Source: a virus. Taken from it: a stretch of DNA of 39,692 bases. The notes below the pieces were generated by a model. The model ran no database searches, was not told where the DNA came from, and saw only the letters and a list, made by a program, of their open reading frames with translations. The first letter of the stretch is position 1. Each line of letters begins with the position of its first letter. Of the stretch, positions 28,412 through 37,113 are shown in pieces. Position numbers and translations under genes: made by a program. The stretch lies in the IMG/VR virus record IMGVR_UViG_3300045988_124394, one strand, 5' to 3'.

Positions 28412-29182
28412 TTATGGATTAAGGACACATATATTGTAAAAAAGGGTAGATAAATCTGAAGGTTTTATGTATCGGTTGTCATACTCAAGACTTTCACCAG
28501 AATTAAGAGATATACTACTTTGCTGCTCTAATTCCTGAAACAGAGGGTTTTGCTTGACATGGTCATATGCTTGTGTATTAGAATAGTACTCTCCGTATGG
28601 AATTTCAATTAAACCTAAACGCAATAAATTATCTATAGACGCTGCACATTGCTTGATAGAGAAATCGCTTATCCAAGAGCAGTGAGATTGAATAAGTAAA
28701 GAACCACCTCCTGGAAACTCCTTTTTCAAATCGATAATAGGTCGGGGTCGAGAAGACATTATTATCTGAAATATATGGGCATCTATTGGCGACATTTGCT
28801 TGATTATTTCAACAAATGAAGGGTGAACAGTATCTTTTGTATCACTAATCATAGATTTTGCAAGGAGATTAGCATATAGATTACGTAATTCATCACTATT
28901 CATAGCATAGGAAATAGCTTGTATTGCGGGAATTGCAACGTATGGTTCTGGCTCAACGATTTTATCAGGGTCGACTTTATTGAGTTTTTCAGTAAGTAAT
29001 TTTTTTGTTTCATCAACGCTGTATTCTCTATTTAGGATCCATTTGTCGAGTCCAGAAAAAGCCGCATTAATAGCCCGTGGTATTCGAGCAAGCATTTTAC
29101 CTGTTTCTTGTGCAGAAGGTTGGAGTGTATCGTGGTATAATTCAGGAACTGTTTTGAGTGCTTTCCCAAGTTCGTTTTTCAT
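28412..29182 (-). CDS. Abi-alpha (DUF4393)-like abortive-infection protein
   Basis: ..AIPAIQAISYAMNSDELRNLYANLLAKSMISDTKDTVHPSFVEIIKQMSPIDAHIF.. matches the Abi_alpha core as I know it. ATG 29182 lies behind GAAAGGA. It is antisense to all flanking late genes. Confidence 0.65.
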   Translation of the reverse strand: MKNELGKALKTVPELYHDTLQPSAQETGKMLARIPRAINAAFSGLDKWILNREYSVDETKKLLTEKLNKVDPDKIVEPEPYVAIPAIQAISYAMNSDELRNLYANLLAKSMISDTKDTVHPSFVEIIKQMSPIDAHIFQIIMSSRPRPIIDLKKEFPGGGSLLIQSHCSWISDFSIKQCAASIDNLLRLGLIEIPYGEYYSNTQAYDHVKQNPLFQELEQQSSISLNSGESLEYDNRYIKPSDLSTLFYNICVLNP

Positions 29183-29215
29183 AAAAATTTGTCCTTTCAA
29201 AATATTTTTGATTAC

Positions 29216-29243
29216 ATTATACAAAAAAATAAAATAATATCAA
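29216..29243 (-). promoter_or_regulatory. Near-consensus promoter for the Abi-alpha gene
   Basis: Minus strand reads TTGATA, 16 nt, TGTATAAT (extended -10), about 35 nt upstream of the ATG. Confidence 0.6.
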
Positions 29244-30477: not shown

Positions 30478-30687
30478 ATGATGAATATTAATGCAAAAAC
30501 AAAAAAATGGTTAAAATGTGCAGGAGTAAGAGCGGTAAAGACGGCAGCACAGACTGCAGTCGCATTGATTCCGGCGGCAGTATCCATTAACGCTGTTGAT
30601 TGGACAACAGTGATCGGCACAGCGGCACTTGCAGGAGTAGTAAGCTTATTAACCAGCATCGCTGGACTTCCGGAATGTAAGGAGTAA
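30478..30687 (+). CDS. Holin
   Basis: 69 aa with two TM segments. ..RAVKTAAQTAVALIP.. and ..LLTSIAGLPE.. are typical Firmicutes phage holin motifs. Directly upstream of the lysozyme. Confidence 0.7.
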   Translation: MMNINAKTKKWLKCAGVRAVKTAAQTAVALIPAAVSINAVDWTTVIGTAALAGVVSLLTSIAGLPECKE

Positions 30688-30691
30688 TAAA

Positions 30692-31309
30692 ATGAAGAAA
30701 ATCAGTAATAAATGCTTGGATTTGGTAAAAGAATTTGAAGGCTGCAAATTGACGGCATATCGCGATGAAGTGGGAGTTTGGACTATCGGGTATGGAATTA
30801 CAAATGCTGATAGAAGCATCACAGGAAAATCAATCCATAAAGGCATGAAAATCTCTAAAGAGACAGCGGAAAAATGGTTAAGTAAAGCTCTTACCAAAAA
30901 ATATCTTCCGCTTGTTTTAAAATATGACAAGCAGTACGACTTTAATCAGAATGAGATTGATGCATTAGTAAGTTTTGCCTATAACATCGGCTCTATTAAA
31001 CAGCTCACAGCAAACGGTACTCGTTCCAGGGCTACGATTGCGAGCAAGATGCTACAATATAACAAAGCAGGAGGTAGAGTTTACAATGGACTCACCAGAA
31101 GGAGAAAAGCAGAGAGAACATTGTTTCTCACAAAGGTAAAAGAAACACCTAAAAAAGAGACGGTAAAAAAGAAATCAAATGAAACAATTGCTAAAGAAGT
31201 TCTGGCCGGAAAATGGGGTTCTGGAAAAGAGCGTAAAAAGAAATTAAAAGCAGCAGGGTATAACTATGCTGCTATACAGAAAATTGTAAATAAGTTGTGT
31301 AAAAAATAA
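30692..31309 (+). CDS. Endolysin: GH24 phage lysozyme with C-terminal CW_7 (Cpl-7-like) wall-binding repeat
   Basis: ..LVKEFEGCKLTAYRDEVGVWTIGYG.. is the GH24 catalytic signature. C-terminal ..LAGKWGSGKERKKKLKAAGYNYAAIQKIVNKL is CW_7-like. Confidence 0.9.
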   Translation: MKKISNKCLDLVKEFEGCKLTAYRDEVGVWTIGYGITNADRSITGKSIHKGMKISKETAEKWLSKALTKKYLPLVLKYDKQYDFNQNEIDALVSFAYNIGSIKQLTANGTRSRATIASKMLQYNKAGGRVYNGLTRRRKAERTLFLTKVKETPKKETVKKKSNETIAKEVLAGKWGSGKERKKKLKAAGYNYAAIQKIVNKLCKK

Positions 31310-31371
31310 TCCGGCACCCATAACAGATACCGGAAAAAAGATTATACCATAGCATTTTTATATTTTTTTGA

Positions 31372-31391
31372 GGGGCAAAAAAGGGGCAGAA
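31372..31391 (+). repeat. Direct repeat GGGGCAAAAAAGGGGCAGAA (copy 1) in the att region
   Basis: Near-identical to 31592..31610. Each copy contains GGGGCA twice. Confidence 0.85.
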
Positions 31392-31516
31392 TATGAAATT
31401 ATATGACTTAATTAACATAAGTTTACCCTATAAAAGAACTTGTATTTAAGCCATTTTTAAACCATATGTAATTTTTTTTGCAAAATAAGCAAAAAAATGT
31501 TTTTTTATTCGTAACA

Positions 31517-31588
31517 TCCATATATTGCAGGCTGAAATCCGCATAAACAGTAGATATTAGCGATTCTGTGGAATCTGCAATATATGGA
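31517..31588. repeat. 14-bp inverted repeat pair in the att region
   Basis: TCCATATATTGCAG (31517-31530) and CTGCAATATATGGA (31575-31588). Confidence 0.85.
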
Positions 31589-31591
31589 AAA

Positions 31592-31610
31592 GGGGCAAAA
31601 AGGGGCAGAA
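31592..31610 (+). repeat. Direct repeat GGGGCAAAAAGGGGCAGAA (copy 2), 8 nt from the integrase stop
   Basis: See copy 1. Confidence 0.85.
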
Positions 31611-31617
31611 ATGGTTT

Positions 31618-32718
31618 TTAAAGAATTTTAATGCTCTGTATCTGCTGGTTGTCCCTCTCTCGCATTTTCTTCGTGACGTGAAGATATATCTTTTTAGTAA
31701 TATGAGAATCTTCATGTCCGAGACGGCGGGAGATTGTTTCGATGTCTACACCCTGTTCCGCCAAAAGAGACGTATGGGTGTGACGAAGGGTGTGAGGGGT
31801 GATCGTGCGCCCTAATGCCTTTTTAGATACCTGGTTTAACTGGTAACGATAGGTAGGATAGGCCAGAGGGTTTCCCTCCTGCTGAAAAACCAGATCATTT
31901 CCGTAAATGAGCTTATTTGCGAGCGCACATTTTTTCAGTTCTTTCGCTAGAGCAAATAACTCATCCTGAATGTATACACGTCTCTTCGAAGAGCGTGTTT
32001 TTGGTGAACTGCTAAGTTTGTTTATGTAATCATAATTAGTAGAAATGATAATATAGCGGTTCTTCAGATCAATATCATTTGCTGTAAGCGAAAGAGCTTC
32101 TCCAATTCTGGCACCGGTAAGGACCAGGAAGCGGGTAAGCGTTCGCCATGGTTCTTTTTTCATTTCCTTAAGAAGTTTTGCAACTTCGTCAGATTCAAGA
32201 TATTTTTGTTCAATGTCTTCATCGGTACCTTCAAAAGGAGATTTCTTTTCCAATTTGTCTAGGTAAGACTTATCTTCGATGTAGTCATTTTTAAATCCCC
32301 AAATTATCATTCTTTTAAATACAGAGATTCGTCCGGCAGCAAGTTCAAGATCTTCGCCAGGATCAACAATATGTTCCCTGACATAACGGGCAGTAAGTTT
32401 GTTTGCAATACAATCTGCTCCTAACATTTCCACAACCTTATGACTGTTTCTTTTCTCAGAGATATAAGAACTCTCCTTCCAGCGTCTTCTTTTGTCGGTT
32501 AGCCATTTTTCTCTGAGTTCGGCAAGAGTGATATTAGAAACAGTCCTTGCATCCAGTAAGGCATCTATTTTTGTAAGAAGTGCCCTCTGCGCAGACTTTC
32601 TGGCTTGTGCGGTATTCTTCTCTGTTGTGATAGAAACTTTCTTTTCCTTGCCTGTTATCGGGTCTGTGTAGCGTTCTACGTGTTTGAATTTACCATTCTT
32701 TGTTTTCTCAGTCCACAT
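31618..32718 (-). CDS. int: Tyrosine site-specific integrase
   Basis: C-terminal ..TPHTLRHTHTSLLAEQGV..ISRRLGHEDSHITKKIYLH.. carries the R..H-x-x-R..Y catalytic motifs. N-terminal MWTEKTKNGKFKH.. is an arm-binding-type domain. The ATG at 32718 has the best spacing to GAAAGGA; the track ORF extends to 32727. Confidence 0.9.
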   Translation of the reverse strand: MWTEKTKNGKFKHVERYTDPITGKEKKVSITTEKNTAQARKSAQRALLTKIDALLDARTVSNITLAELREKWLTDKRRRWKESSYISEKRNSHKVVEMLGADCIANKLTARYVREHIVDPGEDLELAAGRISVFKRMIIWGFKNDYIEDKSYLDKLEKKSPFEGTDEDIEQKYLESDEVAKLLKEMKKEPWRTLTRFLVLTGARIGEALSLTANDIDLKNRYIIISTNYDYINKLSSSPKTRSSKRRVYIQDELFALAKELKKCALANKLIYGNDLVFQQEGNPLAYPTYRYQLNQVSKKALGRTITPHTLRHTHTSLLAEQGVDIETISRRLGHEDSHITKKIYLHVTKKMRERDNQQIQSIKIL

Positions 32719-32772
32719 ATACATCATCCTTTCGTAAAAATGGGTATAAAAAATACACCCTGTTAAAAAATC

Positions 32773-32823
32773 GGATGCTGTGGTATAATCTAATTGTTGA
32801 GGTTAGGTTATACGTCAGCATCC
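32773..32823 (-). terminator. Long composite hairpin followed by a U-run on the minus strand, inside the int leader
   Basis: GGATGCTG..GTATAA..TCTAA / TTAGG..TTATAC..CAGCATCC (about 19 bp with a 2x2 internal loop). The minus strand continues GATTTTTT. Confidence 0.45.
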
Positions 32824-32847
32824 ATGTTGACAGGTAATCTATGAGAA

Positions 32848-32880
32848 AGTCCGGTGTTACCAGCACTGGACTTTTTATTT
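32848..32880. terminator. Hairpin with A-run and T-run on either side (bidirectional terminator candidate)
   Basis: AGTCCGGTG-ttaccag-CACTGGACT, then TTTTT on the + strand. The minus strand has a weaker TTCTC tract. Confidence 0.5.
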
Positions 32881-32904
32881 AATTTTTGAATTGTGCCGGC
32901 ACAA

Positions 32905-33396
32905 TTAATTTTGTTGCGGTATAGGCTTTTTCATCAAAGCAAAAGCAATAAAACATAAAACAGATTGTATCATTACAAAATAGCAGTAAAGAGGAAACAG
33001 TACAGCAGAAACAGCATAAAGGATAGCCGCTGTTAAAGTTAGTCCTCTGCGGTATGCAAATAAAGCAGCAAAATTGAAAATTGTCGCGATAATTGCAACG
33101 ATAACATGGGGAACAACTAGAAAAGTTGCAATACCAGCACCAACTTTTTCAAATCCGGATGTACCACTCGTAGCGGTACTCCAATAAATAATACTATATA
33201 AAGAATATGCAAATCCCATAAGGTGAGAGATGAATAAACAAACCATAGCAGGCATATTACGTTTACCATCCGCATTTGTGTGGGAAGTTTTTTTCACAAT
33301 TTGTTTCTTATGTTCTACTGGACAGCCACAGTTTGGACAAGCTACGGCCCTGTCCGATATTTCCTTTCCACATTCTTCACATTTAATAAGTGCCAT
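32905..33396 (-). CDS. Zinc-ribbon plus four-TM membrane protein
   Basis: MALIKCEECGKEISDRAVACPNCGCP (CxxC..CxxC), then four hydrophobic segments. SD AAGGAGGAAAG lies inside the upstream gene. 14-nt overlap. Confidence 0.7.
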   Translation of the reverse strand: MALIKCEECGKEISDRAVACPNCGCPVEHKKQIVKKTSHTNADGKRNMPAMVCLFISHLMGFAYSLYSIIYWSTATSGTSGFEKVGAGIATFLVVPHVIVAIIATIFNFAALFAYRRGLTLTAAILYAVSAVLFPLYCYFVMIQSVLCFIAFALMKKPIPQQN

Positions 33397-34030
33397 ATCT
33401 TTCCTCCTTAGTTTTTATCAAATCTTCAAGTTTTTCTCTATCCCAAAGTAATACTTGATTGCTTTTAGCTAATTCTTTTGCAGATTTTGTAAAATGTTGA
33501 TTTGTCAAAACAACAGCAACATGACAGTTATAAAAGGTTCTTCCAGCAAAAGCCTCTTGGACAGCTTTATTTCCGATATCAGACGAATAGCATTTACACT
33601 GAATACCGTATTTAATACCATCCTTATATGCCAAAATATCAAGTCCTTGGTCCCCACTACCTTTTGTTACCTCTACATTATCATAACCATTTCGAGCTAG
33701 AAGTTCGGCACAATAATGTTCAAATGCATGTCCATCCATGTTGTCGAATGGCTGATTTAAATTGTAGTATGGTTCAGGCTCTGAGTGATATGAAGAATGA
33801 TGATAACGCTCAGAAGATGAAGAATAGTTCATAGAATGTTTGTTAGGCGAAATGATCCATTTACACCATGCTAGAACGGCACTGCAAGAGTCGATTATCC
33901 ATCCGATTCCGAAAAGTCCTATGGTAAAGAAATATAAAAATCCCATACCGATTTTTCCATCCATAAACTTATGAACTCCGAAAGGACCAAGAAATATAGT
34001 GACAAGCATTCGTGTTGTAGGTGATTTCAT
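33383..34030 (-). CDS. TM2-domain / Mrr-like (PD-(D/E)xK) restriction-endonuclease-domain fusion protein
   Basis: N-terminus ..IFLGPFGVHKFMDGKIGMGFLYFFTIGLFGIGWIID.. is a TM2 domain. C-terminus ..GSGDQGLDILAYKDGIKYGIQCKCYS..VGNKAVQEAF.. is the Mrr_cat D...QxK core. SD TAGGAGGA. Confidence 0.7.
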   Translation of the reverse strand: MKSPTTRMLVTIFLGPFGVHKFMDGKIGMGFLYFFTIGLFGIGWIIDSCSAVLAWCKWIISPNKHSMNYSSSSERYHHSSYHSEPEPYYNLNQPFDNMDGHAFEHYCAELLARNGYDNVEVTKGSGDQGLDILAYKDGIKYGIQCKCYSSDIGNKAVQEAFAGRTFYNCHVAVVLTNQHFTKSAKELAKSNQVLLWDREKLEDLIKTKEERYGTY

Positions 34031-34062
34031 TAAATCAATCCTCCTATATGTATTTTTATAAT

Positions 34063-34070
34063 ATTATACA
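34063..34070 (-). promoter_or_regulatory. Extended -10 (TGTATAAT) upstream of the TM2-Mrr gene
   Basis: The minus strand reads TGTATAAT about 32 nt upstream of ATG 34030, in the AT-rich gap after the ImmA-like gene. The -35 is weak. Confidence 0.4.
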
Positions 34071-34105
34071 ATAAAGAGAAAATAATTTATATAGTATATA
34101 TAAAT

Positions 34106-34585
34106 TTATTCAATTCCATAATTCATATCCACAACTCCCAGTGGTTCAAAAAATATCATGTAATTATCTACTACAGTGTATTTCCCATATTTTAAGAGAT
34201 AGGCATCCAAAGCATCCTTTAAAAATGCTTCTGTAACATCCAGATGCTCTGCCATTTCGTGTAGATTCCTACAGCCATATTGATAAGCAGATAATATGCC
34301 AGATAAACCAATTTGTTTATTGTAAGCCCACATCCGGGCTTTTCGTTCTTGTTTTATATTCTCTATCTCTGTCTGATCTAAGATGTTTCCGGCACTGGTA
34401 TAATGATGTCCTAACTCTTCGGCAAGGACACAGGCTTTCTTTACCTGGGTGGGAATGTCCTTGCGAATTGCAATACATTTATCCCTGATCAGACCGTCAT
34501 GAGTGGAGAGAGATACTTCTTTTACTGCCAGACCTTCTTGATCGGCAGAATCTAAAAGTTGTTCATATGTCAAGTGAGACACCAC
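34106..34585 (-). CDS. ImmA/IrrE-family metallopeptidase-like protein
   Basis: ..CIAIRKDIP..KACVLAEELGHHYTS.. fits the COG2856/DUF955 layout. The motif reads EELGHH rather than canonical HExxH. Confidence 0.7.
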   Translation of the reverse strand: MVSHLTYEQLLDSADQEGLAVKEVSLSTHDGLIRDKCIAIRKDIPTQVKKACVLAEELGHHYTSAGNILDQTEIENIKQERKARMWAYNKQIGLSGILSAYQYGCRNLHEMAEHLDVTEAFLKDALDAYLLKYGKYTVVDNYMIFFEPLGVVDMNYGIE

Positions 34586-34604
34586 CTTCCCATGTAGCGA
34601 TTTG

Positions 34605-34829
34605 CTATAATCCTAGTTCCTTTAAAACTTCTTCCTGAGACATTGCAGGCTGATAATCAGGGTCACCAGAATGATATGCATTAAGAGCAGCGATTTCTTC
34701 TGGATCAGGAGTAACTTCTTCTACATTGTTAAGCAAAAATGCTGCCTGAATTAAATTCCAGACTTTCTCAGCATCTTCATCGCTCATGATAGTAACAGCA
34801 CCAAAGATTCTTTCTTTTACATTAGACAT
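34605..34829 (-). CDS. Small acidic protein downstream of the RelE-like toxin (candidate antitoxin)
   Basis: ATG 34829 begins 4 nt after the toxin stop codon (34834..34836). 74 aa, D/E-rich. Confidence 0.4.
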   Translation of the reverse strand: MSNVKERIFGAVTIMSDEDAEKVWNLIQAAFLLNNVEEVTPDPEEIAALNAYHSGDPDYQPAMSQEEVLKELGL

Positions 34830-34833
34830 ATAA

Positions 34834-35076
34834 TCACACTCCTTTATAAATCTGTCCGCGGTTACCAATATCAATAATATCAATGATAACACCATTTACA
34901 TCAAATAATACTCGAAAATTACCGACACGCAGGCGATAGCCGGAAGCTCCCTGCAACTTTTTAATATCGCCTTCTAAAGGTAATCTGGAGATGGCAGTCG
35001 TCAAACGTTTCTGTGTAGGCTTATCTTGCTTTTTTAGAAATTTAATAGCCTTTTTACCATAAATGATTTGAAACAA
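34834..35076 (-). CDS. RelE/ParE-family toxin
   Basis: 80 aa: ..AIKFLKKQDKPTQKRL..I..L..GDIKKLQGASGYRLRVGNFRVLFDVNG..I.IIDIGNRGQIY is the RelE/ParE fold signature. TTG start lies 6 nt after AAAGGAGA. Confidence 0.75.
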   Translation of the reverse strand: MFQIIYGKKAIKFLKKQDKPTQKRLTTAISRLPLEGDIKKLQGASGYRLRVGNFRVLFDVNGVIIDIIDIGNRGQIYKGV

Positions 35077-35091
35077 TAAAATTCTCCTTTC

Positions 35092-35634
35092 TTACTTCCA
35101 CAAACTATCATCATTCATAATATCTAAATCATTCTGTATCCCTTCTGGAGTCACTTCTATATCAGTACGCTGGTGGGCGGCAAGAAGTTCAGATTTTTTA
35201 GTTATATGCTCATCAATTAATCGTTCTATATTATAGTTCATGTCTTTGTAACAACGGTTAATCATACTCATAAAATCTTTACGATTGAAAACATACTTTT
35301 GTTTTGATTTTGTTTTGATTTCAACAGTTTCTGAATTTAAATTTATTTCATAGCCATATGATTCAAATAATTGTATATAGAGATTTGTTTGGCCTGAAAC
35401 TCGTTTCATTTCATTAGAAATTAATTTTACAGGGGGTTCCCAACCCATTAGATAGGCGGGAGATACGCCACTTAAAGTAGCAGCAGCCTCTATTTTGTCT
35501 GATGGTATATTAGTAATAATGTTGTTTTCGTATTTATATAATGTTTGCTTTGAGACATTGATTTTGTCTGCGAATTCTACTTGACTTAGTCCAAGTTGTA
35601 TACGTGCTTCTTTTATGCGCTCACCAACTGTCAT
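35092..35634 (-). CDS. XRE-family HTH repressor (CI/ImmR-like)
   Basis: MTVGERIKEARIQLGLSQVEFADKINVSKQTLYKYENN.. HTH_XRE plus a 110-aa C-terminal domain. Divergent from the cro-like gene. Confidence 0.8.
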   Translation of the reverse strand: MTVGERIKEARIQLGLSQVEFADKINVSKQTLYKYENNIITNIPSDKIEAAATLSGVSPAYLMGWEPPVKLISNEMKRVSGQTNLYIQLFESYGYEINLNSETVEIKTKSKQKYVFNRKDFMSMINRCYKDMNYNIERLIDEHITKKSELLAAHQRTDIEVTPEGIQNDLDIMNDDSLWK

Positions 35635-35682
35635 ATAGTGGTTCCTCCTTAAAAATAGTAACTTAATAATAGCACAAAAATG

Positions 35683-35711
35683 TTATAAAGGCAACAAAAA
35701 TATCTTGACAA
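35683..35711 (-). promoter_or_regulatory. Leftward (repressor operon) promoter
   Basis: The minus strand reads TTGTCA, 17 nt, TTATAA. Its -35 overlaps the -35 of the rightward promoter. Confidence 0.5.
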
Positions 35712-36586: not shown

Positions 36587-36754
36587 ATGGACAAAGAGAA
36601 TCTTATTCACTTGCATACAAAAGAAACCCCAGAGGGAACAGATATATATCTGGATGATAAATTACTTCATCATGTAAAAGAAATTAGAATCGAGAGTTCA
36701 GTTATCTCTGGCACAGCCGAACTCTCGATAAAGATGAAAGTAAAGTATCCTTAA
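36587..36754 (+). CDS. Small ORF (55 aa)
   Basis: ATG lies 5 nt after AGGATAGGAG. Its stop overlaps the stop of the convergent minus-strand gene. Confidence 0.35.
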   Translation: MDKENLIHLHTKETPEGTDIYLDDKLLHHVKEIRIESSVISGTAELSIKMKVKYP

Positions 36755-37113
36755 CCAAGAAAAAATGCAGAGGCTACTTGCTTAGCAAGTTCTATAAGGA
36801 TACTCAAAGAAGCACCAGCACCTTTTGACATTACTTTTTTCCAAACAGAATCATTACGAATATTGGCGAGAAATTCATGACCTGCCGGAGTGAGATCGGA
36901 AATGTCAGTGTGCTTTCCGTTGTCATAGTAATGTACTTCTTGAATCAGTCCAGATTGTTCACATTGACGGATGCGATACAGAATTTCAGGATGAGCATAA
37001 GAGGAAAGTTCGGGGAATGGGTCCTCAACTTTGTACTTAGCTCGCGTGTAAAAATCGCTGTGTGCTTCAACTGCAATTAAAATATCACGAATGCAGTTAG
37101 GGTTTAGTTGCAT
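36751..37113 (-). CDS. DUF2513-like protein, antisense to the early operon
   Basis: MQLNPNCIRDILIAVEA......LSSYAHPEILYRIRQCEQSGLI..TPAGHEFLANIRNDSVWKK resembles DUF2513 (winged-helix-like). Confidence 0.5.
   Translation of the reverse strand: MQLNPNCIRDILIAVEAHSDFYTRAKYKVEDPFPELSSYAHPEILYRIRQCEQSGLIQEVHYYDNGKHTDISDLTPAGHEFLANIRNDSVWKKVMSKGAGASLSILIELAKQVASAFFLG

Follow-up and report, generated by a model that had tools for sequence, protein, structure and literature searches.

We analysed a 39,692-nucleotide (nt) stretch of viral DNA, IMG/VR record IMGVR_UViG_3300045988_124394 (hereafter the window), and in it two adjacent minus-strand genes, A and B, which encode a predicted membrane-anchored Mrr-type nuclease and a zinc-ribbon membrane protein, respectively. 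The original prediction, made from the letters alone, had taken the two genes for a candidate two-gene prophage defence or exclusion module. Our analysis favours, with a probability of roughly 0.55, a composite moron, in which two independent anti-superinfection modules are co-transcribed only in this phage lineage. A would be a single-gene defence candidate; for B, the likeliest role is that of a separate membrane protein active at the step of DNA entry, or of an anchor-only derivative, and B is not an obligate partner of A. The features of gene A are as follows.

33383-34030, minus strand: gene A, predicted membrane-anchored Mrr-type nuclease of 215 amino acids (open reading frame, Pfam, AlphaFold2 model with a mean predicted local distance difference test score, pLDDT, of 85.7)
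33890-34027, minus strand: A residues 2-47, TM2 two-helix membrane hairpin (PF05154, 53.3 bits against a cut-off of 27.9)
33746-33850, minus strand: A residues 61-95, His/Ser/Tyr-rich flexible linker of about 35 residues (disorder in the AlphaFold2 model)
33416-33745, minus strand: A residues 96-205, Mrr_cat PD-(D/E)xK core (PF04471, 107.5 bits against a cut-off of 21)
33719-33721, 33638-33640, 33599-33601 and 33593-33595, minus strand: A catalytic residues E104, D131, Q144 and K146, respectively (alignment)

The order of TM2 domain, His/Ser/Tyr-rich linker and Mrr_cat core first read from gene A was borne out by Pfam matches above their cut-offs and by the AlphaFold2 model, in which the helices of the membrane hairpin span residues 4-60. 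Linker residues 67-79 had pLDDT values below 50, and both the length and the sequence of the linker varied across homologues. The Mrr_cat match spanned the whole profile (2-115 of 115 positions), and the modelled core is a restriction-endonuclease-like alpha/beta fold with pLDDT above 90 over most of its length; the match of A to the 'inactive' NA-iREase1 family was, at 44 bits, much weaker than that to Mrr_cat. As had been claimed, the catalytic residues of A are intact: E104, D131, Q144 and K146 were unchanged in 49 diverse homologues, as were about 40 other core positions, and the active site (Glu, Asp, QxK) aligned with the D...ECK of AF1548. AF1548 was also the sole match in a PDB sequence search with A, and a Foldseek search with the model of A retrieved AF1548 (E 3.5e-5), the catalytic domains of MspJI and AspBHI, Can2/Cdn1 and the Avs4 nuclease. 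NCBIfam gave nothing for A. No separate modified-DNA reader domain was found in A by Pfam or in the AlphaFold2 model, which together returned TM2, linker and catalytic core only.

Sequence comparison places A in a large family of membrane-anchored Mrr_cat proteins of Lachnospiraceae prophages, with a conserved core and swapped anchors. Among the 120 best homologues of A, the nuclease core was 50-85% identical, and 114 had predicted transmembrane (TM) anchors, the remaining six being fragments or N-terminally truncated gene calls. BLASTP clustering of the N-terminal anchors was uninformative, as hydrophobic segments joined everything; the anchor classes given here were taken from the presence or absence of a Pfam TM2 match. 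They comprise the TM2 hairpin, a two-TM hairpin without a TM2 match and a zinc ribbon followed by two TM helices, and a further layout consists of a zinc ribbon, Mrr_cat and a C-terminal TM2 domain. About one-fifth of the A homologues had an N-terminal zinc ribbon of their own. In the relatives with a zinc ribbon, two TM helices and Mrr_cat, the ribbon folds in the cytoplasm and the two helices bring the chain back, so that the nuclease should face the cytoplasm; we infer from this a cytoplasmic nuclease domain for A as well, with both termini inside. The genomic position of the family is also recurrent. In about 40 of 62 IMG/VR loci (many of them from one metagenome), the gene for the membrane Mrr_cat protein stands 19-180 nt upstream of the integrase gene int in the same orientation; Blautia chromosomes show the order repressor-ImmA(M78)-Mrr_cat-int, and in one A-family locus a serine recombinase replaces the tyrosine integrase.

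The claim of a two-gene module was not sustained, because the A and B families co-occur in no divergent lineage. Adjacency of A and B was found only in this Anaerobutyricum phage lineage, at 97% nucleotide identity or more (loci L001, L075-L081 and L102). No TM domain of B accompanied A's nuclease core in 61 of the 62 IMG/VR loci, the exception (L001) being the same phage, and metagenome and Blautia genome loci with A-type nucleases likewise had no B. Homologues of A at 71-74% identity occupy the same slot in other prophages, again without B; at L070 nothing stands between A and int, and at L074 an unrelated soluble protein of 227 amino acids is encoded there. B-type genes without an Mrr gene were found at 10 genome, 37 metagenome and about 10 other loci. 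No Mrr_cat was present within 4-6 kb of the B homologues of 56-59% identity (three viral and five metagenomic loci), of the TM-only B homologues that L083-85, from a different prophage, and L082, with chromosomal surroundings, encode, of about 30 more metagenome loci, or of the ten B-family genome loci, which come from metagenome-assembled genomes of Oscillospiraceae, from Peptostreptococcus russellii and from an actinobacterium. In tblastn searches, no remnants of A were detected in the B-only loci and none of B in the A-only loci. One listed 78% homologue of B that is preceded by A (P0123) was discarded, as it is the same gene (99.9% nucleotide identity) with two compensating frameshifts. 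Separately, various unrelated zinc-ribbon membrane proteins adjoin membrane Mrr_cat genes at three loci of other prophages (L012, 6639-7487; L015, 3466-4563; L061, 7014-7766), a recurrence that may lie within the high background frequency of such proteins in Firmicute prophages.

The description of two coupled, overlapping genes with a Shine-Dalgarno sequence inside the upstream gene was accurate. The overlap is exactly 14 nt (33383-33396, ATGGCACTTATTAA), from the stop of A to the start of B, and GGAGG stands 9 nt before the A ATG (34040-34044) and, within A, 6 nt before the B ATG (33403-33407). Translational coupling by itself is weak evidence for a two-gene system, and here it is a recombination scar. 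The homology that A shares with L070 and L074 breaks off some nine codons short of its stop codon, and past that point the window matches the ribosome-binding site and first codons of the B-like genes of L063 and L065, which have their own TGTATAAT upstream. By these alignments the 14-nt overlap is a recombination junction, at which the ribosome-binding site of B was joined to a 3'-truncated A, so that A reads through this site to the next stop. The elements that bound the two genes are as follows.

34063-34070, minus strand: promoter-like TGTATAAT, with the -10 TATAAT at 34063-34068, in a 75-nt AT-rich gap upstream of A
32844-32876, no strand assigned: terminator-like hairpin between B and int, with a 15-pair stem and a T-run on the plus strand
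32871-34140, minus strand: A-B cassette as an exchangeable unit, from the promoter-like region to the terminator-like hairpin

The extended -10 element proposed upstream of A stood in part. The TATAAT of TGTATAAT is perfect and conserved, but the TG is shifted by one base from its place in a canonical extended -10 and a -35 is absent, for which reason a consensus scan did not call the element. In alignments, the TGTATAAT motif and the ribosome-binding site were conserved upstream of A homologues of about 72% identity that have different upstream genes, which supports an autonomous promoter. At the other end, a minus-strand terminator call was weaker (32851-32863), and the hairpin coincides with the edge of a block of low divergence. 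From these sequence elements, the A-B cassette probably has its own promoter and terminator, and its independent expression, also part of the original prediction, is likewise probable from the conserved promoter-like motif and the terminator-like hairpin.

The block became apparent when the window was compared with the heteroimmune backbone L075, whose repressor differs at the N-terminus and which lacks the ParE module. Between 32871 and 34140, the two differed at 4 of 1270 nt (0.3%), against 66 of 1828 nt (3.6%) in the ImmA and int flanks, a rate that predicts about 46 mismatches in the A-B block. The block is thus about ten-fold less diverged between the two phages than are the ImmA-like gene and int (2.5-4.0%), indicating a recent exchange of the cassette between backbones. 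Such an exchange fits cooperation of A and B, but it would be expected just as much of any two neighbouring genes enclosed by a single promoter and a single terminator.

Gene B and its parts are as follows.

32905-33396, minus strand: gene B, zinc ribbon plus four-helix membrane protein of 163 amino acids (open reading frame, Pfam, PHROG, AlphaFold2 mean pLDDT 80.4)
33316-33387, minus strand: B residues 4-27, CxxC...CxxC zinc ribbon, predicted to be cytoplasmic (PF13240)
32935-33255, minus strand: B residues 48-154, four-helix membrane core (phrog_31229, AlphaFold2 helices)

The reading of B as a zinc ribbon followed by four TM helices proved sound. Zn_Ribbon_1 scored 24.8 bits, slightly below its cut-off of 25, with both CxxC pairs present and short strands at the ribbon in the AlphaFold2 model; the modelled helices comprise residues 48-77, 82-114, 117-133 and 135-154, and phrog_31229 matched residues 53-159 (E 3e-24). 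The outer loops of the model are very short, leaving almost nothing exposed outside. A Foldseek search of the B model against the PDB gave no significant fold match, only generic four-helix bundles (E at least 0.25), NCBIfam gave only an irrelevant weak match to TcaA, and Pfam found no Lipoprotein_Ltp repeat domain (PF07553) in B. The nearest relatives of B other than itself (L063-65, L103, L105-108; 56-59% identity) share the zinc ribbon and the four helices, after which come one more TM helix, a spacer rich in Ser/Thr and two Ltp repeats (PF07553, E 1e-41 to 3e-45). They sit between repressor and int, without an Mrr gene, and the lysis genes of the phages in question share 85% identity with those of the window. 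Their coordinates are as follows.

L063, 6001-6981, and L065, 6001-6975; also in L103 and L105-L108: proteins with zinc ribbon, five TM helices, spacer and two Ltp domains

Since the B-type module is joined to Ltp repeats in the L063-type proteins, it would serve there as a proteinaceous anchor for a known exclusion domain. The L063-type protein itself resembles an Ltp-type exclusion protein with a polytopic membrane anchor in place of a lipid, an architecture that was not found described in the Ltp paper (PMC3952083). On two freshwater metagenome contigs (L131, 3902-4935; L132, 2244-3277), a stand-alone B-type four-helix protein lies beside a convergently oriented gene that weakly resembles Ltp (E 8e-5), which may be a second, independent association of B-type and Ltp modules. 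B as a truncated Ltp gene received no support: the membrane-core family also has stand-alone members of about 120 amino acids in alignments, and these stop at the same point. As its C-terminus matches the natural end of those members, B is not an obvious truncation. B may be an entry-step membrane protein like the small superinfection-exclusion (Sie) proteins, an anchor-only derivative or a helper of A.

The view that the composition corresponds to no named system requires correction for A taken alone. Epona, a cassette of the chromosomal integron of V. cholerae N16961, combines Mrr_cat with a two-TM 'holin' domain, and it lowered phage plaquing in E. coli only, by a mechanism that was not determined (Darracq et al., bioRxiv 10.1101/2024.07.02.601686). 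Compared by description only, Epona and A are both stand-alone polypeptides with Mrr_cat and a two-TM domain, encoded on mobile elements. They differ in the anchor, which is called a holin domain in Epona and is Pfam TM2 in A, and in context, a Gammaproteobacterial integron as opposed to the lysogeny module of a Firmicute prophage.

The idea that a membrane-held nuclease could attack entering DNA now has, by analogy, an experimental precedent in SNIPE (TM-DUF4041-GIY-YIG), a constitutive inner-membrane nuclease that cuts lambda DNA during injection (Saxton et al., bioRxiv 10.1101/2025.11.03.685801). SNIPE associates with the tape measure protein, becomes toxic once its TM domain is deleted and provides direct, non-abortive defence, and its homologues combine a conserved nuclease with highly variable membrane-targeting N-termini (bioRxiv 10.1101/2025.11.03.685801). 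A has the same design of N-terminal membrane anchor and, by its predicted topology, cytoplasmic nuclease, and in its family, too, the nuclease is conserved and the anchors are diversified; on these two grounds we propose that A works like SNIPE. However, SNIPE has a GIY-YIG and not a PD-(D/E)xK nuclease, and the only nuclease families that Pfam matched in A were Mrr-type; its DUF4041 domain, which binds DNA and the tape measure protein, had no Pfam match in A; it has one TM helix and not a hairpin; and it is a chromosomal system of E. coli. Because it has none of the defining domains of SNIPE, A is not a SNIPE member.

The location between the ImmA-like gene and int, called a classic moron position, agreed with the gene order, albeit with a sub-threshold ImmA-like call, and is a documented superinfection-exclusion slot of Firmicute temperate phages. 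In phage TP-J34 the order is int-ltp-metalloprotease-cI, ltp is transcribed while the phage is a prophage, and its product consists of anchor, spacer and repeats, the last of which bind the tape measure protein of the incoming phage and so block DNA injection (PMC3952083). B occupies the same slot as ltp, between int and the ImmA-like metalloprotease gene, and the Ltp layout of anchor, spacer and repeats is mirrored by the 56-59% relatives of B. In contrast to Ltp, B has neither an Ltp domain nor a lipoprotein signal, and it exposes almost nothing outside the membrane, where Ltp acts; the relatives of B differ from Ltp in having a zinc ribbon and five TM helices instead of a lipid anchor.

The outcome of PADLOC (2023 version, older than the description of Epona) was divided: A was matched by its nuclease core only, and B was not matched. 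The matches of the core were the Mrr-like nuclease at the C-terminus of ZorD of Zorya type I (E 3.5e-21), the candidate system PDC-S02 (E 3.4e-16) and LmuA of Lamassu (E 6.5e-9), with the similarity restricted to A residues of about 88-208 and no full-length match; the A locus has no helicase, none of the ZorABC and LmuB partners and nothing of the N-terminal parts of PDC-S02. Membership of A in Zorya, Lamassu or PDC-S02 was rejected, only the nuclease core of these multi-domain or multi-gene systems being matched. E. coli Mrr, MspJI and AspBHI share with A the catalytic fold and the D...QxK active-site configuration, but they are soluble and carry an N-terminal modified-DNA reader, in place of which A has a membrane hairpin. 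PdpSau and AbiP are prophage-encoded, membrane-anchored abortive-infection (Abi) proteins that shield lysogens from other phages (PMC10127798). Like A, they are products of prophage accessory genes with an N-terminal membrane anchor and a cytoplasmic domain directed at nucleic acids; unlike A, they have a DNA-binding domain of the oligonucleotide/oligosaccharide-binding fold and no nuclease, and the gene adjoins the lysis module.

Under the composite-moron reading, A is probably expressed in the lysogen from its own promoter, and its TM2 hairpin and linker would hold the Mrr-type nuclease at the cytoplasmic face of the membrane. By analogy with SNIPE, this tether would keep the nuclease off the chromosome and place it where superinfecting DNA emerges, so that the DNA may be cut during or just after injection. 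Several points weigh against this reading. The anti-phage role of A is a prediction; A lacks any domain for DNA recognition or adapter function of the kind of DUF4041 in SNIPE or the N-terminal domain in Mrr, and the reading gives no account of how A would avoid self-cleavage or find phage DNA. The promoter evidence is one conserved -10-like motif, and the many IMG/VR loci from one metagenome are not independent. Furthermore, the zinc-ribbon neighbours at L012, L015 and L061 and the cis ribbons in about one-fifth of the A homologues could hint at a functional link that B supplies in trans. Cooperation within the lineage is also possible, since the A-B block was exchanged as a unit and B is translationally coupled.

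These last points lead to the alternative that A and B form a true two-component system, in which B binds the TM2 hairpin of A in the membrane and so could gate, position or activate the nuclease, for instance at the DNA-injection channel. It would account for the 14-nt overlap with its internal Shine-Dalgarno sequence, for the movement of the block between two backbones as one low-divergence unit and for the embedding of both proteins in the membrane with cytoplasmic domains (AlphaFold2 models), and it draws on the cis-fused zinc ribbons of A homologues and on the injection-blocking Ltp domain of B relatives. We nevertheless consider it distinctly unlikely, given that A and B occur together in a single lineage only (nucleotide identity of at least 97%), with 61 of 62 IMG/VR A-core loci lacking B, that B-family loci elsewhere have no Mrr_cat, that the overlap stems from the ribosome-binding site of B joined to a 3'-truncated A, and that relatives of A function, or at least persist, alone. 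Slightly less probable again is the more specific proposal that this phage has built a new two-part device, in which B joins the TM2 hairpin of A and gates or places the nuclease at the siphophage DNA entry channel.

Somewhat better placed than either, though still unlikely, is an abortive-infection effector, in which A is held inactive at the membrane and, once freed or activated by oligomerisation or by a membrane disturbance that infection causes, degrades host and phage DNA indiscriminately. This would suit the absence of a specificity domain from the Pfam matches of A and the use of Mrr_cat as a suicide or indiscriminate effector in Avs and NLR-like (nucleotide-binding, leucine-rich-repeat), Lamassu and CRISPR-ancillary (Can2/Cdn1) systems. 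Most integron-cassette systems found together with Epona give growth arrest or lysis (bioRxiv 10.1101/2024.07.02.601686), yet the mode of action of Epona itself was not determined; prophage-encoded membrane-anchored Abi proteins such as PdpSau exist (PMC10127798), yet SNIPE shows that a tethered nuclease can defend directly and non-abortively, and in the sequence of A there is neither a sensor nor a means of release, for example a protease site or a signalling domain. We give least credence to a cassette without a defence role, in which A would act in the phage life cycle, for instance in host-DNA degradation after induction or, given its tight linkage to int, in processing tied to integration and excision, and B would be a holin- or antiholin-like protein or a decaying Ltp-type remnant. 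At most loci the A-type gene does stand immediately upstream of int and shares its orientation, but this linkage holds with both tyrosine and serine recombinases, which points to a shared slot rather than a shared mechanism, and the slot is a documented superinfection-exclusion slot (PMC3952083). As for B, it lacks the Ltp ectodomain of its relatives and has no fold match; however, a holin and an endolysin are already encoded at another site in the phage (30478-31309), the C-terminus of B falls where stand-alone members of the family naturally end, and at least 1000 contigs carry the exact B protein intact.

The window represents the genome of a temperate, siphophage-like virus, in which structural and lysis genes on the plus strand are followed by the minus-strand lysogeny module, which reads in the order helix-turn-helix repressor, ParE-like toxin, small open reading frame, ImmA-like gene, A, B and int. 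The neighbouring genes are as follows.

35092-35634, minus strand: helix-turn-helix repressor (open reading frame and Pfam)
34834-35076, minus strand: ParE/RelE-like toxin (PF05016)
probable start near 34829, end at 34605, minus strand: small acidic open reading frame after the ParE-like toxin
34106-34585, minus strand: ImmA-like gene (Peptidase_M78, 20.5 against a cut-off of 22, that is, sub-threshold)
31618-32727, minus strand: tyrosine integrase gene int (open reading frame and Pfam)
30478-30687, plus strand: r1t-type holin (lysis gene)
30692-31309, plus strand: lysozyme with CW_7 repeats, endolysin (lysis gene)

The host lineage of the phage is the gut bacterium Anaerobutyricum (Lachnospiraceae): in the integrated copies L075-L080, the genes bordering the prophage have exact products annotated as from Anaerobutyricum soehngenii or A. 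hallii. The exact A protein was found on 897 gut metagenome contigs and is deposited as DAZ52797.1 ('restriction endonuclease'); the exact B protein, on at least 1000 contigs, is DAZ52822.1 ('zinc-ribbon containing domain protein'), both GenBank records being from uncultured Caudoviricetes. A megablast search of 31500-35700 against the phage collection gave no match.

Some further observations concern the surroundings of the cassette. The ParE-like toxin gene and the small open reading frame are inserted between the repressor and the ImmA-like gene, which in the related backbone L075, free of the ParE module, directly follows the repressor. The ImmA-like protein has EELGHH at the expected HExxH site, a variant shared by the ImmA-like genes of L059 and L061; with its Peptidase_M78 score under the Pfam cut-off, it may represent a divergent or inactive subfamily. 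The lysis cassette borders int across a gap (31310-31617), indicating that the window is an excised or circularly permuted form of the phage and that the phage attachment site (attP) should lie in 31310-31617; in the integrated copy L075, int faces an Anaerobutyricum gene for an HI0933-like oxidoreductase. The window holds another candidate for a prophage defence moron, an Abi_alpha gene (28412-29224, minus strand, 270 amino acids, PF14337, E 1e-51) that lies between tail genes and lysis cassette on the opposite strand. In the Blautia prophage L100, the slot of the early region that in other phages contains DUF2513 is filled by an Abi_alpha gene. The window has a DUF2513 gene of its own on the opposite strand inside the early region (36751-37113, minus strand, E 3e-21), and the same family at the equivalent position in the Blautia prophages L099 and L101 suggests that this position is another accessory-gene hotspot.

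A broader proposition, which we hold to be more probable than the two-part device, is that the membrane Mrr_cat family in the repressor-ImmA-X-int slot is a very common PD-(D/E)xK counterpart of SNIPE in the human gut. A counterpart of the nuclease half had already been described in Epona, and SNIPE has recently shown that a tethered nuclease can tell self from non-self by its location. Phage-phage competition is poorly understood in Gram-positive gut commensals, and the PD-(D/E)xK version of the tethered-nuclease design is a highly prevalent accessory gene of Lachnospiraceae prophages. If validated, it would extend defence by location to a second nuclease superfamily and to Gram-positive gut commensals.

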